64,000 nucleotides of DNA, from assembly GCA_964535955.1 (NCBI GenBank), contig CAZHVK010000003.1, positions 62,001 to 126,000 on the forward strand, written 5' to 3'. Source of the stretch: an uncultured Methanosarcinales archaeon (lineage in GTDB: Archaea > Nanobdellota > Nanobdellia > Woesearchaeales > CAXGTL01). A model generated the notes under the pieces. It made no database searches and had not been told where the DNA came from. It saw only the letters and a program-made list of their open reading frames with translations. Below are positions 17,372 through 30,722 of the stretch, piece by piece. How positions within the stretch are numbered: the stretch's first letter is position 1; each line of letters starts with the position of its first letter. Position numbers and translations under genes: made by a program.

Positions 17372-17389
17372 AGTACAAAGGTGAAGAAT

Positions 17390-18805
17390 ATGAAAAAACA
17401 CGAATTGTATTTATATAATACACTCACAAGAAAAAAAGAATTATTTAAGCCAATAGTTTCAGGAGAAGTGGGATTCTATAGTTGTGGGCCTACTGTTTAC
17501 TGGAATCAGCATATTGGGAATCTAAGGACTTATGTTTTTAATGATATTCTTAAAAGAGTATTATTATATGATGGATATAAAGTAAAACACATTATGAATG
17601 TCACAGATGTTGGCCACCTTACCAGTGATGCTGATACTGGCGAAGACAAGATGGAAAAAGCAGCTGCAAAAGAAGGAAAAAAAGCACAAGACATTGCAGA
17701 TTATTATTGGAAAATATTTAGACAAGACTTTAGAAAACTAAATATTATTGAACCAGATGTATGGTGTAAAGCAACTGAATACATACAAGAACAAATTAAT
17801 ATGTTAAAAGTTCTTGAAAAAAAAGGCTTCACATATAAAACATCTGATGGTATTTATTTTGATTCATTAAAATTAAATGATTATGGTAAATTAGCAAAAC
17901 TAAAGATAGAAGGATTAAAAGCAGGAATAAGAACAGATGTAAGAGAAAAAAAAAACCCAACTGATTTTGCTTTGTGGAAATTTTCAGAAAAACCAGGAAT
18001 AAGACAACAAGAATGGAACTCACCTTGGGGAATTGGGTTTCCAGGTTGGCATCTCGAATGTTCTGCAATGGCAGCAAAACATTTAGGTAAACAATTTGAT
18101 ATTCATACAGGTGGTGAAGACCATATCACTGTTCACCATACAAATGAGATTGCACAAGCAGAAGCAGCTTTTGGCAAAAAACCATGGGTAAAGTATTGGT
18201 TACATGGAGCTTTTTTAACATCAAAAGGTGAAAAAATCAGCAAAAGCAAAGGAGGTTTATTTACAATAGATAACTTAGAAGAAAAAAGATTCAAACCTTT
18301 AAGTTACAGATACTTGTGTCTTAATACACATTATAGAAAACAATTAAGCTTTTCATTAGAAGTTTTAAAAAATGCAGAAAAATCATATGATAGATTAAGA
18401 ACCATAATCAGAGATTTAAAACAAGAAAAAGATAAATCAAAAACAGAACAAAATACAAATAAACAAGAAATAAATGAATTATATTTAACAAAATTCGAAG
18501 ATGCAATCAATGACGATCTTAACATGCCACAAGCATTAGCAGTTTTATGGGACTTTGTTAGAGACAAAGATGCAAAAGGTAAATTAAAGACAATTGAAGA
18601 AATGGAAAAAGTGTTTGCTTTGGATTTGTTAGTTGAAGAAGAGAAAGTTAAAGTTTCTGATAAAATCACAAAACTTATTGATGAGCGTGAACAAGCAAGA
18701 AAAGACAAAGATTTTGCAAAAGCAGATAAAATAAGGGATAAACTAAAAGAAAAAGGAATAATTCTAGAAGATACTAAAGATGGTGTTAGGTGGAAAAAAG
18801 TTTAA
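17390..18805 (+). CDS. cysS: Cysteine--tRNA ligase
   Basis: CGPTVY, HIGN, DFALWK, PGWHLECSAM, DIHTGG..HHTNE, KISKS, AD.IRD.L. AAGGTGA SD before ATG 17390. Confidence 0.97.
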   Translation: MKKHELYLYNTLTRKKELFKPIVSGEVGFYSCGPTVYWNQHIGNLRTYVFNDILKRVLLYDGYKVKHIMNVTDVGHLTSDADTGEDKMEKAAAKEGKKAQDIADYYWKIFRQDFRKLNIIEPDVWCKATEYIQEQINMLKVLEKKGFTYKTSDGIYFDSLKLNDYGKLAKLKIEGLKAGIRTDVREKKNPTDFALWKFSEKPGIRQQEWNSPWGIGFPGWHLECSAMAAKHLGKQFDIHTGGEDHITVHHTNEIAQAEAAFGKKPWVKYWLHGAFLTSKGEKISKSKGGLFTIDNLEEKRFKPLSYRYLCLNTHYRKQLSFSLEVLKNAEKSYDRLRTIIRDLKQEKDKSKTEQNTNKQEINELYLTKFEDAINDDLNMPQALAVLWDFVRDKDAKGKLKTIEEMEKVFALDLLVEEEKVKVSDKITKLIDEREQARKDKDFAKADKIRDKLKEKGIILEDTKDGVRWKKV

Positions 18806-18812
18806 TAGAGGA

Positions 18813-19304
18813 TTATTTATAATCATCTATTCCAAATTTATCTGCCAAACGTCTCCTACCTCTTTTAACAGATTCTCCATATTCTTTTTTTTGTTTTTTT
18901 CTTATTTCCTCGTTTCTTCTTAATTTCTTATTATAGTGGTTATCGATAAGAGTCTCCCAATCACCAGGAATAAAACAATCAATATTATGAGGATAAGATG
19001 TGTAATCATAGACACTACCTTTACATTGGAAAACTGTTTTTTTATTATAAATAATACTTAATTCCACTTCATATCTTGTAGGATCTAACTCAGGATCAAC
19101 ATCAGCATCAATTATTAATCCTTTTTCTAATTTCATGCGTCCTTTAAAATTTTTATATCCTATAAAAATATTAAACGCTTTCTTAAAAATCTCCTTATCT
19201 TTACCATCTGATCTTCTTTCTTCAACCAAATCTTCCAAAGTCCTTTTCCTATCTAAACTCTCTATCAAATTGGCTGAATCTGGAACTTCTATCAAGATAA
19301 ACAC
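18813..19304 (-). CDS. Hypothetical protein, last gene of the kinase/vWA operon
   Basis: 163-aa ORF overlapping the upstream gene end, strong GGAGGAGGTG SD. The true start may lie a few codons downstream. Confidence 0.6.
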   Translation of the reverse strand: MFILIEVPDSANLIESLDRKRTLEDLVEERRSDGKDKEIFKKAFNIFIGYKNFKGRMKLEKGLIIDADVDPELDPTRYEVELSIIYNKKTVFQCKGSVYDYTSYPHNIDCFIPGDWETLIDNHYNKKLRRNEEIRKKQKKEYGESVKRGRRRLADKFGIDDYK

Positions 19305-20289
19305 CTCCTCCTAAATATTCATCACCTATCCTTCTTGATCTTCTAGATGTGGAATGAATAATTTTTTTGTTTGTATAACTTTTTTTAAAAGCTTCAAAAA
19401 CATTTACAGCACTTGACAAGAACTGATCCTTTAGACAAAGTTCATCACAAAGCAGCATTCTTCTATAACCAATATCATAAAGCCAAGCAAGTTCTGATAA
19501 ATCAGCACAACTAGGCACTGGTTTATCAACTAATGATAACAAGATTCTTGAACCAGCCATTGCATCTGGATCTTTATCAACAATCAATTTAACAGCATCT
19601 AATATTTCATGAGGTTTATCAACTTCAACATAAAGATCACCACGAGCAGCCATCAAAGATAAATAATTATCTTTTCTAAATTCATTTGCAACATAATGCA
19701 AACCTTTTTTATCTTCTATCTTTAATATAATCTCAGCATCTTTACCAATATAATCTCTGAATTCTTCAACATCTCTTTGACTATGAGTATATGATAAACA
19801 ATATTTATTAAAACCAGCTTTTACTGCTTTTTGAATCTTTTCAATCTCATAATCAAGAAACATTGGACCATGTACTTGAAGAGTTGGTTCTCTTATGTGT
19901 AATGATTCACCTTCAGAGACCATAAAATGAGGTCCTCCCTGGAATATCAAGCGATTTCCACCAACTATCTTATCAAGAACACAATAATCTTCACCAGCTT
20001 TAAACAAAACAGTTGTAGGTGTCTTGACAGATATAGGATGGTTAAGTACAAGCTCAAGATGATCCTTATATGCTTCAACTTCTGTTACTCTCAATTGCCA
20101 ACCTTTTATATCAAAATACAAAGGTATATGATCTTCGATAGAGTTAGCAATCTCAAGCTCTCCATCAAGTTGATTACCCTTAATCATCGCACTGTTTAAT
20201 CTTATTCCACACAACCTATTATCTTTTGCAAACTTTTTAAAGTGTGGAAATGTCGGCCAAAGTGTTACCATCAATTCCAGGTCTTTCAT
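19249..20289 (-). CDS. Divergent pyruvate-kinase-like protein (barrel plus B domain, no C-terminal domain)
   Basis: VTLWP, IRLNS, FDIKG.QLRV, LSY, IILKIE, LMAARGDLYVEV and MLLCDE correspond to pyruvate kinase motifs. Only 346 aa. Confidence 0.8.
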   Translation of the reverse strand: MKDLELMVTLWPTFPHFKKFAKDNRLCGIRLNSAMIKGNQLDGELEIANSIEDHIPLYFDIKGWQLRVTEVEAYKDHLELVLNHPISVKTPTTVLFKAGEDYCVLDKIVGGNRLIFQGGPHFMVSEGESLHIREPTLQVHGPMFLDYEIEKIQKAVKAGFNKYCLSYTHSQRDVEEFRDYIGKDAEIILKIEDKKGLHYVANEFRKDNYLSLMAARGDLYVEVDKPHEILDAVKLIVDKDPDAMAGSRILLSLVDKPVPSCADLSELAWLYDIGYRRMLLCDELCLKDQFLSSAVNVFEAFKKSYTNKKIIHSTSRRSRRIGDEYLGGGVYLDRSSRFSQFDREFR

Positions 20290-20310
20290 TTTTTATCAAC
20301 CTCCATATTT

Positions 20311-20394
20311 TGTCAAGAACCATTGGTCAATAGACCAGTGGTTCTTGATCATGCTCAGTATACCACCAGTCTATTGACTGGTGGAATACTGACA
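20311..20394. repeat. Twin-hairpin intergenic element, copy A
   Basis: TGTCA-[hairpin]-TGATCATGCTCAG-[hairpin]-CTGACA; same scaffold at 31628..31681. Confidence 0.8.
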
Positions 20395-20404
20395 TATCAA
20401 ATCA

Positions 20405-21382
20405 CTAAATAAGTGATTTTGATTTTTCAGGATCCCCACTTCTCTTCATCACTGATTTTCCAGCCATTAACTTAGGAACAGATTTTCTTCCTTTTAGATA
20501 ATGTACAGGATTCAAAGATTTAAGAACTGTTTTTATTTGTCCTGGGTCTTGCCTATCTTTTAATTCGTCTTCAAAATAACCAATTCTTCCTGTTTCTTTT
20601 GCAAGTATACCAAAGATTACATCAACAACTCTAGAAGCATCAGGTAATACTGCAATATGATCTTCTCCTAAAAGCGACTTCCAAGAGTCATATACTACTT
20701 TATTTGTTCCAGTCATCCCATCACTAGAACAAGTGTCATATGACTTGATCACTAAATAGACAGAATATTTCCTTTGTAATTCTTTTACCAATCCTTCTGC
20801 ACTTAATCTATTTTCTAATGCATTATATGTCCAATTTTTTGCTTGTTTTTTATCAACAGATGGATACATTTTTTCATCTCCAATAAAGATAAATATTGGA
20901 TTCACCGCATTACTCATCTCAACATTTCTTGCATAATACAATGCTGCTAAGTCATAACTTTCTTGAATTTGGCCACCACCACCACCTTCAACTACTAATT
21001 CTTTTAATCTCTTTTCTAGATCAGTGCCTTTTGTAAAAGGTCTTACTTGCAATGGATAATTATCACAATATGCATCACCAACAGCTGCAAAACTAATTTC
21101 CATATCTTCACCAAGGTATTCTTTACCTTCTAATTCAAGATATGGCAGCTTAGAAAATATTGTTGCTGGCCAATCACCCATTGATCCTGTTACATCACAA
21201 GCAATTACCAATGGTGATATACATTTTGTTTCTAATTTTCCAGGCACAAGATCTTTTGGATCTTTTCCAGAACTAACTGCATCACCGTAACTTCTACCTA
21301 CATGCCTATCATATGTTTTACGTGCAGTTTTAAAACTATATCCTGTCCACGGTCCTGGGTCATAATCTCCTGCTTCAGACAT
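20405..21382 (-). CDS. Intracellular vWA-domain protein
   Basis: MIDAS-like DVTGSM, VGD..D..PLQV, EGGGGG..ESY, IFIGDE. No signal peptide. Confidence 0.85.
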   Translation of the reverse strand: MSEAGDYDPGPWTGYSFKTARKTYDRHVGRSYGDAVSSGKDPKDLVPGKLETKCISPLVIACDVTGSMGDWPATIFSKLPYLELEGKEYLGEDMEISFAAVGDAYCDNYPLQVRPFTKGTDLEKRLKELVVEGGGGGQIQESYDLAALYYARNVEMSNAVNPIFIFIGDEKMYPSVDKKQAKNWTYNALENRLSAEGLVKELQRKYSVYLVIKSYDTCSSDGMTGTNKVVYDSWKSLLGEDHIAVLPDASRVVDVIFGILAKETGRIGYFEDELKDRQDPGQIKTVLKSLNPVHYLKGRKSVPKLMAGKSVMKRSGDPEKSKSLI

Positions 21383-21467
21383 TTTTTATCCCTCCATATA
21401 TTTTATACCTTATTTTTAGGGATTACAAACTAGCAAGATCAGTTACTCATCCCCAAAAAATTTTGTT

Positions 21468-22469
21468 TTATAAGCCCGGTATTGGCTTAAAACCAGAGCT
21501 GATTCTTCCAAAACTTTCTTTTCTTACTTTCCTTATTGTTTCACATAAATCTTCTTTATGCCAGTTAGGTCTTGAAAGAACATCTCTAACAATTAATCTT
21601 CTAATGAATTCACATAAAGGATCAGGAACATAATTAGGCACTTTTTTTCTTTGAACATCACCACCTACCGCATATATCATAGTTATACCTAAACCATAGA
21701 AGTCTGATTCTGGAATCAAAACATCTCCTGCCTGTTGTTCAGGAGAAGCAAAATAAGGTGTATAACCCTTGCAATAAGATTCATCTTTAGGTCTTATAAG
21801 TGATAGACCATAATCTACCAAAACAACAGTATGATCTTTAGGTTGAATAATAATATTCTGTGGCTTAACATCACCATGAACAACACCATGATAGTGTAAA
21901 TATTTTAATGCATTTAATGCACGCTCAGAAATCCAAGCAACATGTTCAGGATCTAATTTTCCAACTTTTGTGACTAATTGTTCAATAGTAGGACCAGGAA
22001 CATAACTCATAACAATTGCAGGACTACCATCTTCTAATTTTAAGATATCCCTCATAGTAGGAATACTAAAATGTCTTAAATCCCATATTGCTTTTGCTTC
22101 TTCTATTAATATCAATTCATCCTGAGGAGAAACATAATGACCATGCTTGATACAAACTGGTTCTTCAGCAATCATGTGCTCACCCTTATATGTCTTGCCA
22201 AAACCACCTTCTGCAAGTTGTTCTATAATCCTATAATTCCCAATAATCTTTCCTTCTAGATTATTTCTTTCATAATCATATTTTTCCTTTTTCTTAGGAC
22301 TCAAAAGAATTCTTTTAGCCTCGTTAATGGATTTTGCTAAATCTTCATCACCCTTTTTATCAGGGTGATATTCTTTCATTAATGTTTTATAAGCAGCTTG
22401 TATCACAGAAGGTCTTGCCCTTGGGCTTACTTCAAGAATTTCATATAAACTATAATTTTTATTTTTCAT
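21468..22469 (-). CDS. DnaJ J-domain fused to a Hanks-type Ser/Thr protein kinase
   Basis: YEILEV..AYKTL..YHPDK..INEAKRIL..YD (J domain with HPD). Kinase motifs AEGGFG, CIK, HGDVKPQN, DYG, ASPE, SDFYGLG. Confidence 0.92.
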   Translation of the reverse strand: MKNKNYSLYEILEVSPRARPSVIQAAYKTLMKEYHPDKKGDEDLAKSINEAKRILLSPKKKEKYDYERNNLEGKIIGNYRIIEQLAEGGFGKTYKGEHMIAEEPVCIKHGHYVSPQDELILIEEAKAIWDLRHFSIPTMRDILKLEDGSPAIVMSYVPGPTIEQLVTKVGKLDPEHVAWISERALNALKYLHYHGVVHGDVKPQNIIIQPKDHTVVLVDYGLSLIRPKDESYCKGYTPYFASPEQQAGDVLIPESDFYGLGITMIYAVGGDVQRKKVPNYVPDPLCEFIRRLIVRDVLSRPNWHKEDLCETIRKVRKESFGRISSGFKPIPGL

Positions 22470-22584
22470 TTCAAATATAAGGTAGTAAGCATACAATATA
22501 TACATAACGTACTTTCAATAAGCTAAAAACGTTTTGTAAGTATTAATAGAAAAGTTTAAATACTAGTTTTACTAACCAAGATAT

Positions 22585-23529
22585 ATGGAAATCAGAAAGC
22601 TGGTTAAAAGTGGAAATTCCTCATTAGTTGTTGCAATTCCCAGAATTTGGATTAAAAGAAATAAATTAAAACCAGGAAATAGAGTGTACATTGATGATGA
22701 TAAGAACAAATTAATTCTCCACACAGAATTAAAAAAAAGAAAAACAGAAAAAAAAGAAAAAGTGATAAATGTTGATGGAAAAAGAGAAAAAACAATTTGG
22801 GCAGATATTGTTACAGCTTATCTTGATGATTATTATCACCTTATTATTAAAGGAAAAGAATTAAAAAAACATAGAATATTAGTTAAAAAAACAATCTATG
22901 AATTAGTAGCTTTAGAATTGGTTGATGAATCCTCAGAAAGAATAATTGCAAAAAGTTTTCTTAATTTTGAGGATGCAGAATTAAAATTATTGATTAGAAG
23001 AGTTGATAATATATTAAGGTCCATGTTTATTGATTGTAAAGAATCAGCACACAATGCAGAATTATTCCTAACAGTAAAAGATACTGATAGAGAAGTTAAT
23101 AGGTTAAGTTTGTTAATACTCAAATTATTAAAAGTAGCTTATCTTGATAAATCAGTATTAGCTTCATTAGAAATTTCAGAATCAGAAATTATTAAATATT
23201 GGGATTTAAATCTTCATTTAGAAAAAATTGGTGATAGAATTAAAAATGTTGCAGAATTAATACATAAACTAAAATCTAAGAAGAAAAAAGATTTTTTAAA
23301 ATTCTTTTCAAAAGTTGAAAAAATGTATTTAGACATTATGAAATCCTTTTATACTTCTTCATTTGCTTTAACAGACGAAGTATATAATAAAAGAATATCT
23401 GTAGTAGGAGAACTTAAAGAATATATTCAAAAAAATAAAGATCCAATATACTCACAGATAGCAATCAATGCATTTAATTTAACAACACACATAACAGACA
23501 TTGGAAGGGTTGTAAGATTTATGAGTTGA
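22585..23529 (+). CDS. AbrB/MazE-PhoU family regulator
   Basis: N-terminal RKLVKSGNSSLVVAIPRIW (AbrB-like), PhoU-type DREVNR and LEKIGD. Confidence 0.85.
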   Translation: MEIRKLVKSGNSSLVVAIPRIWIKRNKLKPGNRVYIDDDKNKLILHTELKKRKTEKKEKVINVDGKREKTIWADIVTAYLDDYYHLIIKGKELKKHRILVKKTIYELVALELVDESSERIIAKSFLNFEDAELKLLIRRVDNILRSMFIDCKESAHNAELFLTVKDTDREVNRLSLLILKLLKVAYLDKSVLASLEISESEIIKYWDLNLHLEKIGDRIKNVAELIHKLKSKKKKDFLKFFSKVEKMYLDIMKSFYTSSFALTDEVYNKRISVVGELKEYIQKNKDPIYSQIAINAFNLTTHITDIGRVVRFMS

Positions 23530-28601: not shown

Positions 28602-30722
28602 ATGAAAAAAAAGTTGTTGATATTTATTATAATATTTCTAATTTTGTTTAGTTTAAATAATATTGCAATGATAAAAGAAGACAAGAATGTAAATGAAAAT
28701 TATAATTTAGGTGATATGATCACCACTTCAGGGTTTATTTTATTAGAAGAAAATATGCTAGCAAATTTTAAAATAAAATTAGTATGCTCAAATGAAGAGA
28801 AATTATTGATGACAAAGATATTTAATGTTGAAAAAAACGAAAAACATAATTTTGAAGAAAAATTATTTATTCCTTTGTTTTATGAAGATAAATGTAAATT
28901 AAAATATGAAATCCTAAAAAATCAATTAATAATTGATGAGGCAACCTCTAATGATTTTATACTTGTCAAAGATATAAATGCAAACATATCCATGGATAAA
29001 AAAGAGATCCAATTGGGTGAATCCATAACCTTAAATGGGAGAATTACTAAACTAAATAATCAACAAACAAAAGGAACAGCTTTGATAACAATTGAAAAGG
29101 ATGGGGAAACATTCCTCGTTTTTAATTCTGATATAAATGAAGGAATTTTAGAAGAAAAAATTGGACCTGTATTTATCCCAAATGGTGATTATGATTTAAT
29201 TGTTTATGTTAGAGATGCATATGGTAATGAAAAAACAATAAAAGATATAAGATTTAATGTTTTAACAAAAATAAATTTAACAACAGAGATAGATGATGCA
29301 AGATATTTTCCAGAGGAAACAATTAAAATAAGTGGTGAGATTAATAATTTTAAAGAAATCTCAAATGAGTTTACTTTAAAAGTAAGATTAAATGATTATA
29401 AAGAAGAAAAAAAGATCTCAAATAAATTCAAACATAAATTAACCATTCCAAAAGATACAAAATCAAATGAAAATATTCTTACTATAGAAATTCTTGATAA
29501 ATATGGTAACAAAGGTGTGGAAGAACATAAAATATATATAATACCCATAATAAAAGAAATAGTGCTAAAAACCAACAAAGAAGAATTTATTCCTGATGAA
29601 GATTTAATGATAAATATTACATTATTAGATCAAGCAAAACATGTTGTTTATGATGAGATTAAAATAAGTATAAAAAAAGGTTTTTTCAACATTTACAAAG
29701 AAATTATAAATTCTAAAAATTTATTAAAATATAAAATTGATAAAGATTTAAGTAATAAAGAAATAAAAATAATTGCTAATTACGAAAAATTAGAATCTGA
29801 GAAAAAAATAATAATTATGTCTGAACAAACAAAAGAAGACAAACAAGAAAACAAAGGATTAAACTATCTGGCAGGAAACTTGGTTAAAGATATAAGATCT
29901 AATAATAATATAATTTATGCATTGATTATCCTCTTCTTATTACTTGTTTTAATATTTGTATTTTCACATTCAAAATTAAGAAAAGAAATAACGCATGTAT
30001 TTAAAACAAAAATGGATAAATCAGAAAAAGTTAAAAAAAAATTACAAAACAAAATAAAAGAAAAACATAAAGAAAAAAAAGAATTAGAACAAACATTTCA
30101 TAAATACATAGACCCTGCTATTGCTAAAAAATTAATAAATGATAAAGACAATAAAGAAGGCATCAAAAAAAATGTAACTGTTTTATTTGCCGATATGAGA
30201 GGTTTTACAAGATTAGCTGAAAAAGGAGATTTTGAAGATATTTCAGAAAATTTGAATATATTCTATAAAGCAGTAAACAGTTCAATAAAGATTTATAATG
30301 GTATAATAGACCAATTAGTTGGTGATCAAGTGTTTGCATTATTTAATGTAACAAAAGAAGATAAAAATCATATCTTGAATGCTATAAAAGCAGCTATCAA
30401 AATAAGACAAAATCTTAAGAATGTAAATAAACAACTTATAAAAAAGAACAAAAAATTAATAAAAGCAGGAATAGGAATTAATTCTGGGGAAGTATTATTA
30501 AGTCATATTGGTTCTGATAATATGTTAAGATACACTGCAATAGGTAATACTGTAAACCTTGGTGCAAGATTACAAGGAAAAGCTAAACACAGCCAAATAT
30601 TAATCACACAAGAGACATACAAATTAATAAAAAATGAAATAGAAGTTGAAGATTTAGGTTATATGAATTTCAAAAATATTAGTAAACAAATAAATGTGTT
30701 TAATGTTATTGGTTTAAAATGA
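28602..30722 (+). CDS. Membrane-anchored class III nucleotide cyclase with a large extracellular beta-rich region
   Basis: Signal peptide, single TM, coiled coil, then TFHKYI, VTVLFADMRGFT, GDQVFALF, GIGINSG, YTAIGNTVNLGARL. Confidence 0.9.
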   Translation: MKKKLLIFIIIFLILFSLNNIAMIKEDKNVNENYNLGDMITTSGFILLEENMLANFKIKLVCSNEEKLLMTKIFNVEKNEKHNFEEKLFIPLFYEDKCKLKYEILKNQLIIDEATSNDFILVKDINANISMDKKEIQLGESITLNGRITKLNNQQTKGTALITIEKDGETFLVFNSDINEGILEEKIGPVFIPNGDYDLIVYVRDAYGNEKTIKDIRFNVLTKINLTTEIDDARYFPEETIKISGEINNFKEISNEFTLKVRLNDYKEEKKISNKFKHKLTIPKDTKSNENILTIEILDKYGNKGVEEHKIYIIPIIKEIVLKTNKEEFIPDEDLMINITLLDQAKHVVYDEIKISIKKGFFNIYKEIINSKNLLKYKIDKDLSNKEIKIIANYEKLESEKKIIIMSEQTKEDKQENKGLNYLAGNLVKDIRSNNNIIYALIILFLLLVLIFVFSHSKLRKEITHVFKTKMDKSEKVKKKLQNKIKEKHKEKKELEQTFHKYIDPAIAKKLINDKDNKEGIKKNVTVLFADMRGFTRLAEKGDFEDISENLNIFYKAVNSSIKIYNGIIDQLVGDQVFALFNVTKEDKNHILNAIKAAIKIRQNLKNVNKQLIKKNKKLIKAGIGINSGEVLLSHIGSDNMLRYTAIGNTVNLGARLQGKAKHSQILITQETYKLIKNEIEVEDLGYMNFKNISKQINVFNVIGLK

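Follow-up and report, generated by a model that had tools for sequence, protein, structure and literature searches.

The window analysed here, 64,000 nucleotides of contig C3 from the 1.49-Mb, 100% complete genome (G000) of an uncultured Woesearchaeales archaeon, carries a minus-strand run of four co-oriented genes between cysS (17381-18805) and an alaX/valS block. The first three, which encode a J-domain serine/threonine kinase, a protein with a von Willebrand factor A (vWA) domain and a pyruvate-kinase-like enzyme (PKL), form the conserved unit; the fourth is an unrelated orphan outside this cassette. The features of the locus are as follows (loci, genomes and contigs are cited below by L, G and C numbers).

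21468..22469, minus strand: J-domain (HPD) and non-RD Hanks-type Ser/Thr kinase, 333 aa, first cassette gene (Pfam DnaJ and Pkinase; conserved catalytic residues)
20405..21382, minus strand: cytoplasmic vWA protein, 325 aa, with an integrin beta-I-like metal-ion-dependent adhesion site (MIDAS) (AlphaFold model, fold searches, column counts, PHROG 2971)
20312..20395, no strand assigned: REP-like (repetitive extragenic palindrome) pair of long hairpins between the vWA and PKL genes (fold energy; genome copies)
19249..20289, minus strand: PKL, 346 aa, A barrel and B lid, no C domain (Pfam, alignments, AlphaFold model, Foldseek, coding score)
18813..19304, minus strand: orphan gene 4, 160-163 aa, likely start TTG at 19295 (coding score; homologue searches)
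22585..23529, plus strand: AbrB-PhoU transcription regulator, divergent from the kinase (Pfam MazE/AbrB and PhoU; recurrence near PKL loci)

All four open reading frames (ORFs) were confirmed at these coordinates, with coding scores in their own frames of 0.26, 0.30, 0.21 and 0.24 for genes 1-4 and negative scores in the other frames, seven housekeeping genes from the same window serving as the reference. A sequence-only reading of this DNA had described four co-oriented genes, the last three with strong Shine-Dalgarno (SD) sites; this stands for the ORFs and for genes 2 and 3, which have GGAGG ribosome-binding sites at normal spacing, but the GGAGG of gene 4 lies only 2 nt from its GTG, which makes an in-frame TTG at 19295 the more probable start. 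The kinase gene, which has no SD site, is likely leaderless, and an in-frame ATG at 22505 offers an alternative start giving 345 aa. The four-gene operon of that reading is putative as a unit of transcription.

Conservation and setting of the cassette

GTDB genomes were scanned with a PKL alignment and the best 80 of 292 relatives kept; together with 18 loci from IMG/VR (near-duplicate pairs L118/L131, L121/L122 and L125/L132 included), these gave 98 loci for six-frame profile searches. The profiles were built in part from the same loci, and BLAST with the window proteins gave the same layout wherever the ORF caller had kept the gene. PKL falls into two clades: clade A, which includes the window copy, consists of J-kinase, vWA and PKL and mostly stands alone, while its sister, clade B, lacks the J domain. 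Among loci with at least 240 bases upstream (four were left out), a vWA gene lies directly upstream of PKL in 93 of 94: 46/47 clade-A cellular, 29/29 clade-B, 16/16 clade-A viral and 2/2 other viral loci. Where at least 2,300 bases were available, the kinase was present in 38/40, 8/21, 16/16 and 1/2 loci of the same groups (54/56 for the window's clade as a whole) and the J domain in 32/40, 0/21, 16/16 and 1/2. The invariant core is vWA plus PKL, not vWA plus kinase.

A separate, independent sample of the order, 251 genomes in all, contained 25 genomes that match vWA (21 of these strongly, E <= 1e-40), and in 20 of the 21 a weak PF00224 match lay within ~3 kb on the same contig (the totals 251, 25, 91 and 83 of this draw include the unpublished genomes G132 and G206, on which nothing else here depends). 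FastTree distances, calculated with four near-duplicate loci left out, correlate at 0.88 for PKL and vWA (84 loci), 0.82 for PKL and kinase and 0.86 for vWA and kinase (59 loci), and at 0.57-0.66 within clade A. The hosts comprise Woesearchaeota, bacteria of the Candidate Phyla Radiation (CPR), Spirochaetes and large viral contigs, sequence conservation across phyla is ~55-69%, and archaeal, CPR, spirochaete and viral rows are interspersed in the PKL tree, a pattern that, with the matching gene trees, is expected of a block that has moved whole. The sequence-only reading had seen here an uncharacterised kinase-vWA-PK-like module rather than a glycolytic operon, and had named gene neighbourhoods as the check: the triad does co-occur across tiny archaea, bacteria and giant phages, its trees agree, and a DnaK gene is present in the genome.

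Gene 4, which that reading had counted as an operon member, does not share this history. A protein search recovered its own sequence only (one match among 36 candidates of 89-286 residues), and it has no usable Atlas match and no homologue in the 112 other loci. That gene 4 works with the other three in a single functional system, as an effector or sensor particular to this lineage, is therefore very hard to credit, given also that the gene following PKL varies from locus to locus, even if gene 4 is co-oriented, has its own SD site and lies within a block missing from two relatives. The non-conserved PKL tail (residues ~309-346), whose score is not that of coding sequence, is the source of the 56-nt overlap with gene 4. 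On the minus strand at 19305-19316, an in-frame ATG stands six codons 5' of the gene 4 GTG and is followed three codons on by TAG; gene 4 may once have been slightly longer.

In the same-genus genome G003, cysS abuts a 157-aa/valS block and the cassette is missing, and in G002 of the same genus two unrelated genes occupy its slot. Gene 4, the triad and the regulator are thus present or absent together at this site, and gain and loss are both possible. The AbrB-PhoU gene recurs in 8 of 24 archaeal PKL loci where 1.07 would be expected at the genome density of its five paralogues (P 2e-5, a value that overstates the case, as kin loci are not independent); the window copy groups with those of L022, L045 and L048 (support 99), and a helix-turn-helix gene lies divergently upstream of the cassette in four other loci, directly in L037, L038 and L053 and ~5 kb off in L049. 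The AbrB-PhoU protein is a likely regulator of the cassette. A phosphate-starvation link through its PhoU domain is unproven, with no PstS-family protein found in this genome. The gene set of the earlier reading holds for the triad; it missed this divergent regulator, and also the settings of the wider family beside NAD-salvage and PurA-like genes that are described below.

The 115-nt spacer between the vWA and PKL genes has a fold energy of -55.8 kcal/mol. Its twin-hairpin repeat is dispersed in the genome (near-full copies at C7:44211-44340 and C11:27748-27880, partial matches on other contigs) and is not a conserved cassette part, although this copy could affect transcript stability. A scan for sigma-70 promoters and terminators, a model ill-suited to an archaeon, gave results at chance level (23 versus 21.3). 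The window genes are archaeal, with nearest homologues labelled Woesearchaeota, Pacearchaeota or Nanoarchaeota, and the stretch is present in DNA contigs from four marine metagenome runs of one study. Elsewhere in the window, 28602-30722 encodes a large secreted or membrane protein, the C terminus of which, read by eye, resembles class III adenylate cyclase.

The three cassette proteins

In the kinase, Pfam places DnaJ at residues 8-65 (E 3e-14, above the cut-off for PF00226) and Pkinase at 79-270 (E 3.5e-27). The HPD (35-37), G-loop EGGFG, K108, E124, HGDVKPQN (H198, D200, N205), DYG (D219) and SPE motifs bear out the earlier description of intact catalytic motifs and an intact HPD, with HGD instead of HRD marking a non-RD kinase. 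Across 59 aligned homologues K108, E124 and H198 are invariant, and D200, N205 and D219 are kept in 57-58. The protein may act as a J-domain co-chaperone of DnaK, and the chaperone link drawn by the sequence-only reading holds in so far as an HPD J domain and a DnaK gene are both present; it was overstated for the family, given that the sister clade has no J domain and that 12 of 46 J domains carry a degenerate HPD.

Several loci depart from this layout around the kinase gene. In L040, L043 and L049 a ThiF/E1 gene lies 5' of a kinase that has lost its J domain and a CYTH gene follows PKL, with JAB and ClpX-like ATPase genes also present in L043 and L049. In L054 (2266-3680) a ~290-aa unknown family and a small RelA/SpoT-domain gene are directly upstream of the J-kinase. 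In L068, L071 and L075 the J-kinase is inverted relative to vWA-PKL, with a PP2C gene then in L071 and L075.

The vWA protein has no match in Pfam or NCBIfam, its sole match being PHROG 2971 (E 2.6e-27). Its AlphaFold model (predicted local distance difference test, pLDDT, 88.6) adopts a vWA fold, its best structural matches being integrin beta-I domains (Z 15.3, root-mean-square deviation 2.7, 189 aligned residues), with MIDAS residues D63-x-T65-G-S67, E141 and D169; we take E141 to be a beta-I-type MIDAS glutamate from what is known of integrins, a reading made without residue-level superposition. Across 137 rows D63, S67, D103, D169 and W234 are invariant and E141 is kept in 136, and model and conservation together uphold the earlier claim of a cytoplasmic vWA protein with a MIDAS-like motif. 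The N-terminal extension is also conserved, with near-invariant W12, R30 and Y32, and the C-terminal helices carry W234 and R277-Q278. The family is large (838 clusters at 50% identity, E <= 1e-30); only 2/137 homologues reach VWA_2 at E <= 0.01, no solved structure was matched by sequence, and its Atlas clusters are unnamed, the nearest named one being VWA_4 at 0.83-0.84.

PKL matches the pyruvate kinase (PK) barrel in Pfam (E 2.3e-10), and the model of residues 1-308 (pLDDT 96.3) comprises the PK A and B domains, with a template modelling (TM) score of 0.76 to 1PKY in Foldseek. The C-terminal regulatory domain (PF02887) is without a match and the protein ends after the barrel, so the truncated pyruvate-kinase-like enzyme of the sequence-only reading is confirmed. 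Against NCBIfam PK models it scores 40-43 bits, where the cut-offs are 306-432.

PKL residues were compared with Escherichia coli PykF by alignment, in PykF numbering, over 145 PKL rows. T9, P12, R32, N34, D66, K68, R73, S192, K220, E222 and A243-D246 are kept, and these residues bind phosphoenolpyruvate (PEP) and metal in PK; the PEP and divalent-metal set of PykF consists of R32, K220, E222, ARGD243-246 and T278. In window numbering, the PEP/Mg residues R30, N32, D60, K62, R67, S166, K190, E192 and D218 are found in 144-145 of the 145 rows. The nucleoside diphosphate (NDP) site is different: H37, D127, K156, S312 and G313 of PykF correspond to M35, A98, E128, C281 and D282 of the window protein, and the exchanges of H37 for M (135/145), K156 for E (139/145), S312 for C or G (145/145) and G313 for D (145/145) run through the family, with D126-D127 replaced by K97-A98 in clade A. 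T278 becomes S247 (144/145) and Q279 R248 (143/145); R292, an inter-subunit residue in PK, becomes mostly C or S; further changes are S36 to A/V, E71 to Q, G157 to S and G248 to Y/F, and a new C285 is present in 142 rows. In 14 rows of conventional PK from the same order (three short or split), the corresponding H, K, T, R, S and G are found in 10, 9, 14, 14, 14 and 10.

In a study of Streptococcus pneumoniae PK, Lys184 holds the nucleotide ribose hydroxyls, and waters of the nucleotide Mg sit on Thr306, Ser340 and Asp153 (bioRxiv 10.1101/2024.06.25.600556). By spacing (122 and 34 residues), Lys184, Thr306 and Ser340 correspond to PykF K156, T278 and S312, and Asp153, less exactly, to D127. 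By this mapping PKL has given up or inverted most of the sugar-phosphate contacts and has fixed new residues, a pattern that suggests a changed acceptor, not decay.

The rival closest to hand is that PKL is an ordinary NDP kinase (PEP + NDP -> pyruvate + NTP), a dedicated regenerator of nucleoside triphosphates (NTPs) and maybe the glycolytic PK of this genome, with kinase and vWA standing in for the allosteric C domain that it has lost. We think this rather unlikely. R67, K62 and N32 are invariant in PKL, partner genes elsewhere (NadE, NadM, PurA-like, QueC-like, EF-G) consume NTPs, and the Protein Data Bank (PDB) holds a 321-aa chain named pyruvate kinase (8IW2); against this, 139 of 145 rows carry Glu in place of the Lys that binds ribose, PKL lacks the E(Q/H)xxR motif of GDP selectivity (clade A has E-L-x-x-E there), and the genome has a nucleoside diphosphate kinase (NDK). 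A GTP-specific PK, an idea drawn from PurA-like and EF-G neighbours, was likewise dropped for want of that motif.

The glycolytic part of this rival can be set against gene content. The two PKLs, that of the window and a second copy described below, are the only PF00224 matches in this complete genome, which also encodes enolase and PPDK/PEP synthase for PEP supply, and PKL could fill the role of glycolytic PK here, there being no other. Across the order, a strong PF00224 match (E <= 1e-60) occurs in 12 of the 21 vWA-positive genomes (11 full-length), as against 83 of 251 overall, with no sign of replacement. Because PKL coexists with conventional PK in those 12 genomes it is probably not glycolytic, and is probably no general stand-in for the glycolytic enzyme.

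A search of plasmids found only a conventional PK. A different C-domain-less PK of 336-346 aa, with a near-canonical active site, occurs in L019, L031 (5258-7793) and L032 (1079-4139); in L031 and L032 it is preceded by a Ser/Thr kinase of 484-513 aa with no vWA gene, a second, independent pairing of kinase and short PK, and in L032 a regulator-like gene resembling AbrB-PhoU lies nearby.

Genomic contexts and proposed function

In clade B, nadM, nadE, pncA, pncB, Nudix or NAD kinase genes accompany 29 of 31 loci. The second copy in this genome (L021, C17:3391-11828) belongs to that clade, with 36-40% identity to the window copy, and stands in the order pncB-pncA-nadE-Nudix-nadM-kinase-vWA-PKL-nrtR, with three small ORFs interspersed and a 135-aa unknown gene between vWA and PKL. 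Linkage to nad, pnc or nrtR genes is a property of this C17 paralogue and was not found for the window copy; by profiles, NAD genes lie near clade A in 1 of 49 cellular and 1 of 16 viral loci, with a NadM-like gene in L063 (Pfam scan of flanks) as an extra.

A third context is a PurA-like gene (L029, L058, L076, L081, L133, L134), which also occurs without PKL in Bxz1-type mycobacteriophages and Vibrio phages; 161 Mycobacterium phage records match vWA. In L058, L076 and L081 each enzyme, PKL and PurA-like, has its own vWA gene. These arrangements would suit a scheme in which the vWA protein is substrate or carrier, its N-terminal arm modified by PKL (elsewhere by the PurA-like ligase), so that PKL would be a PEP-dependent protein-modifying enzyme: vWA pairs with two unrelated phosphoryl-transfer enzymes, one vWA each in those tandem loci, and with PurA-like alone in the Bxz1-type and Vibrio phages; the acceptor pocket gains acidic E128, D282 and E44; and the arm carries its near-invariant W12, R30 and Y32. 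An adaptor binding different clients through its MIDAS explains the same pairing, however, and we know of no PK fold established as a protein kinase in prokaryotes, so we consider this scheme improbable.

Other neighbours vary. In L030 (7086-15216) vWA-PKL is followed by Ham1, thymidylate-synthase-like and QueC-like genes and then by a set of four, one of them AAA_5, found after PKL in L044 (1955 onward) as well. A ~290-aa unknown family without a Pfam match usually sits between vWA and PKL in clade B (L094:5154-6020 and seven other loci). In one phage clade (L119, L125, L129) an EF-G gene directly follows PKL and an ADP-ribosylglycohydrolase gene lies upstream, and in L081 the gene after PKL encodes an EF-G-family GTPase of ~607 aa.

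The full triad is present in all 16 clade-A viral loci, on the 485-kb GenBank phage LR745208 and on IMG/VR contigs of 46-485 kb. Of 14 records checked for viral hallmarks, three gave a match: L117 for Gp23, L130 for terminase and L134 for both, with no sheath match in any. The remaining records count as viral by their IMG/VR assignment, plus GenBank for LR745208. This carriage bears on the anti-virus role raised by the sequence-only reading, here framed as an anti-virus or inter-element conflict system in which the J-kinase senses infection through DnaK and PKL, as effector, drains PEP or makes a toxic or signalling nucleotide. Patchy distribution (21/251 genomes), cross-domain transfer and a variable chromosomal slot are in keeping with such a system, as are kinase-domain matches to MADS6 and PD-T4-6 models and the ADP-ribosylglycohydrolase genes that lie near 7 of the 16 viral loci (some of these loci are duplicates, and one phage clade is involved).

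The only PADLOC or NCBIfam defence matches come from the kinase domain (MADS6 and PD-T4-6 models), which scores 103 bits against an NCBIfam cut-off of 460; vWA and PKL have no PADLOC match, and for MADS, PD-T4-6 and BREX PglW no whole protein matched above cut-off and no partner genes were found at the cassette. Among 150 of the 163 flanking ORFs from 44 clade-A cellular loci, seven proteins matched PADLOC at E <= 1e-15, all generic (three ThiF, two DNA methylases, two partial MADS matches), a count that stands here with no background rate beside it, and Pfam on 58 flanking proteins gave mostly housekeeping families, one AbiEii and one transposase. Also speaking against such a system, large viral contigs carry the triad intact, and its high conservation across phyla is unlike that of fast-evolving effectors. 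As a conflict system the cassette seems to us distinctly unlikely. Host defence, weakly supported, ranks below a metabolic rescue role, and a conflict role on either side is possible.

The interpretation that we favour, while holding it short of an even chance, is that kinase, vWA and PKL make up a mobile three-gene cassette for a phosphorylation-gated, PEP-driven nucleotide or NAD rescue enzyme, which would pass phosphate to a nucleotide-type acceptor other than ADP. We infer five steps: (1) the divergent AbrB-PhoU protein would control cassette transcription; (2) the J domain would dock DnaK and tie kinase activity to chaperone load, an optional input of the window's clade; (3) the kinase would phosphorylate the vWA protein, a candidate site being its conserved Ser/Tyr-rich N-terminal arm; (4) the vWA protein would gate PKL; and (5) the PKL product would help to refill nucleotide or NAD pools under stress or infection. 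Such refilling would explain both the sister copies in NAD-salvage regulons and retention by large phages. The nearest tested precedent is an archaeal one, the phosphorylation of the vWA protein ArnB by ArnC/ArnD (PMC6509490).

Several observations weigh against this rescue-enzyme interpretation. PKL can do without the kinase, which 13 of 21 clade-B loci lack; NAD genes flank only 2 of 65 loci of the window's clade, the NAD link being borrowed from the sister clade; the window PKL has W64 where 135 of 145 rows carry R or K; and R67, K62, T9 and P12, NDP-site residues in PK, are kept, which would allow an ordinary NDP acceptor. Matching trees would be expected for any block transferred whole and are no evidence of physical contact, and distant versions are under-sampled among the genome loci.

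More speculatively still, the cassette may represent a PEP-powered signalling or rescue system of a new class: a PK scaffold re-purposed to phosphorylate something other than an NDP (a precursor of pyridine nucleotides, an unusual nucleotide or the arm of its vWA partner), gated by an integrin-like vWA protein and a DnaK-coupled kinase. DPANN archaea, CPR bacteria and huge phages would then have swapped it as a means, independent of ATP, of surviving or overriding nucleotide or NAD depletion in infection. Pyruvate kinase has been treated as a one-reaction family, and new chemistry is suggested by so large a paralogous family, in which the rebuilt acceptor site is conserved and the vWA partner fixed; it is directly testable with three small, soluble proteins. 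Annotations of DPANN and CPR genomes often name PKL genes 'pyruvate kinase', so that metabolic reconstructions may err where they take these genes for glycolytic PK. Carried intact by large viral contigs, the triad is a candidate phage tool for control of host nucleotide or NAD pools. A laboratory handle is offered by Bxz1-type mycobacteriophages, which can be cultured and in which this kinase-vWA pair precedes a PurA-like gene. The triad is a real, widespread module of three genes with a re-tooled enzyme and a proposed function.

Comparison with known systems

Canonical pyruvate kinase (EC 2.7.1.40; PF00224 and PF02887; 1PKY, S. pneumoniae PYK 8XW6-9) shares with PKL the A barrel, B lid and PEP/Mg residues. 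PKL differs in having no C domain, a shortened lid, family-wide replacement of NDP residues and R292, ~19% identity and a vWA gene nearly always beside it; the canonical reaction converts PEP and ADP to pyruvate and ATP.

The TerY-P triad and related modules join kinase, PP2C and vWA genes. A neighbourhood of kinase, PP2C and standalone vWA genes is described in PMC7159879. In such modules, as in the cassette, a Ser/Thr kinase gene adjoins a standalone cytoplasmic vWA gene, and to that extent the analogy drawn by the sequence-only reading is sound; it went too far in that the cassette has a J domain where the triad has a zinc ribbon, that its third gene encodes a metabolic enzyme and that its vWA-PKL core persists without the kinase. 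There is no PP2C gene in the window cassette, and one lies nearby in only 3/49 clade-A cellular, 0/31 clade-B and 0/18 viral loci. No Pfam, NCBIfam or PADLOC match names the vWA protein as TerY, these libraries having been compared rather than a TerY profile itself.

In the ArnA-ArnB system of Sulfolobus, the kinases ArnC and ArnD phosphorylate the vWA protein ArnB (PMC6509490), a likeness in archaeal Hanks kinase, MIDAS-bearing vWA and phosphorylation switch. By contrast, the cassette lacks an FHA partner, its vWA protein has an N-terminal arm and no beta-sandwich in the model, and its predicted output is an enzyme, not archaellum expression.

MoxR/vWA pairs (NorQ-NorD, CbbQ-CbbO, RavA-ViaA) and MoxR-vWA ternary conflict systems (PMC7159879) share with the cassette a MIDAS vWA adaptor beside a client-like enzyme. 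The NorD vWA is a fold match to that of the cassette (Z 11.7), and MIDAS aspartates after strands 1 and 4, a trait of MoxR systems, are present as D63 and D169 in 137/137 rows. A MoxR AAA+ gene is absent from the window cassette and is not a recurrent neighbour of the family (AAA_5 lies downstream in L030 and L044 only); the J domain would recruit DnaK instead, and the cassette has nothing like the variable effector slot of ternary systems.

NrtR-regulated NAD salvage operons and phage NadV/NadM (PMC9503650, PMC7824862, in their accessible parts) recall the sister clade, which sits among pncB, pncA, nadE, nadM, Nudix and nrtR genes. Those parts mention no PK-like or J-kinase gene, and the window's clade stands mostly apart from NAD genes. 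In Bxz1-type mycobacteriophages, gp247-gp250 (Ser/Thr kinase, hypothetical, PurA-like) include the same kinase family (E 9e-28 to the profile) and the same vWA family (29% identity); they differ from the cassette in that the enzyme is PurA-like, not PKL, no J domain was detected and annotation is gene by gene only.

A literature search that did not cover subscription journals and supplements, so that supplements of the Aravind group may mention it, found no description of the cassette. Should PKL prove to be an ordinary NDP kinase, the cassette would be a new variant on a known type instead; as it stands, it is apparently undescribed, with a vWA-PKL core that fits none of the families tested.

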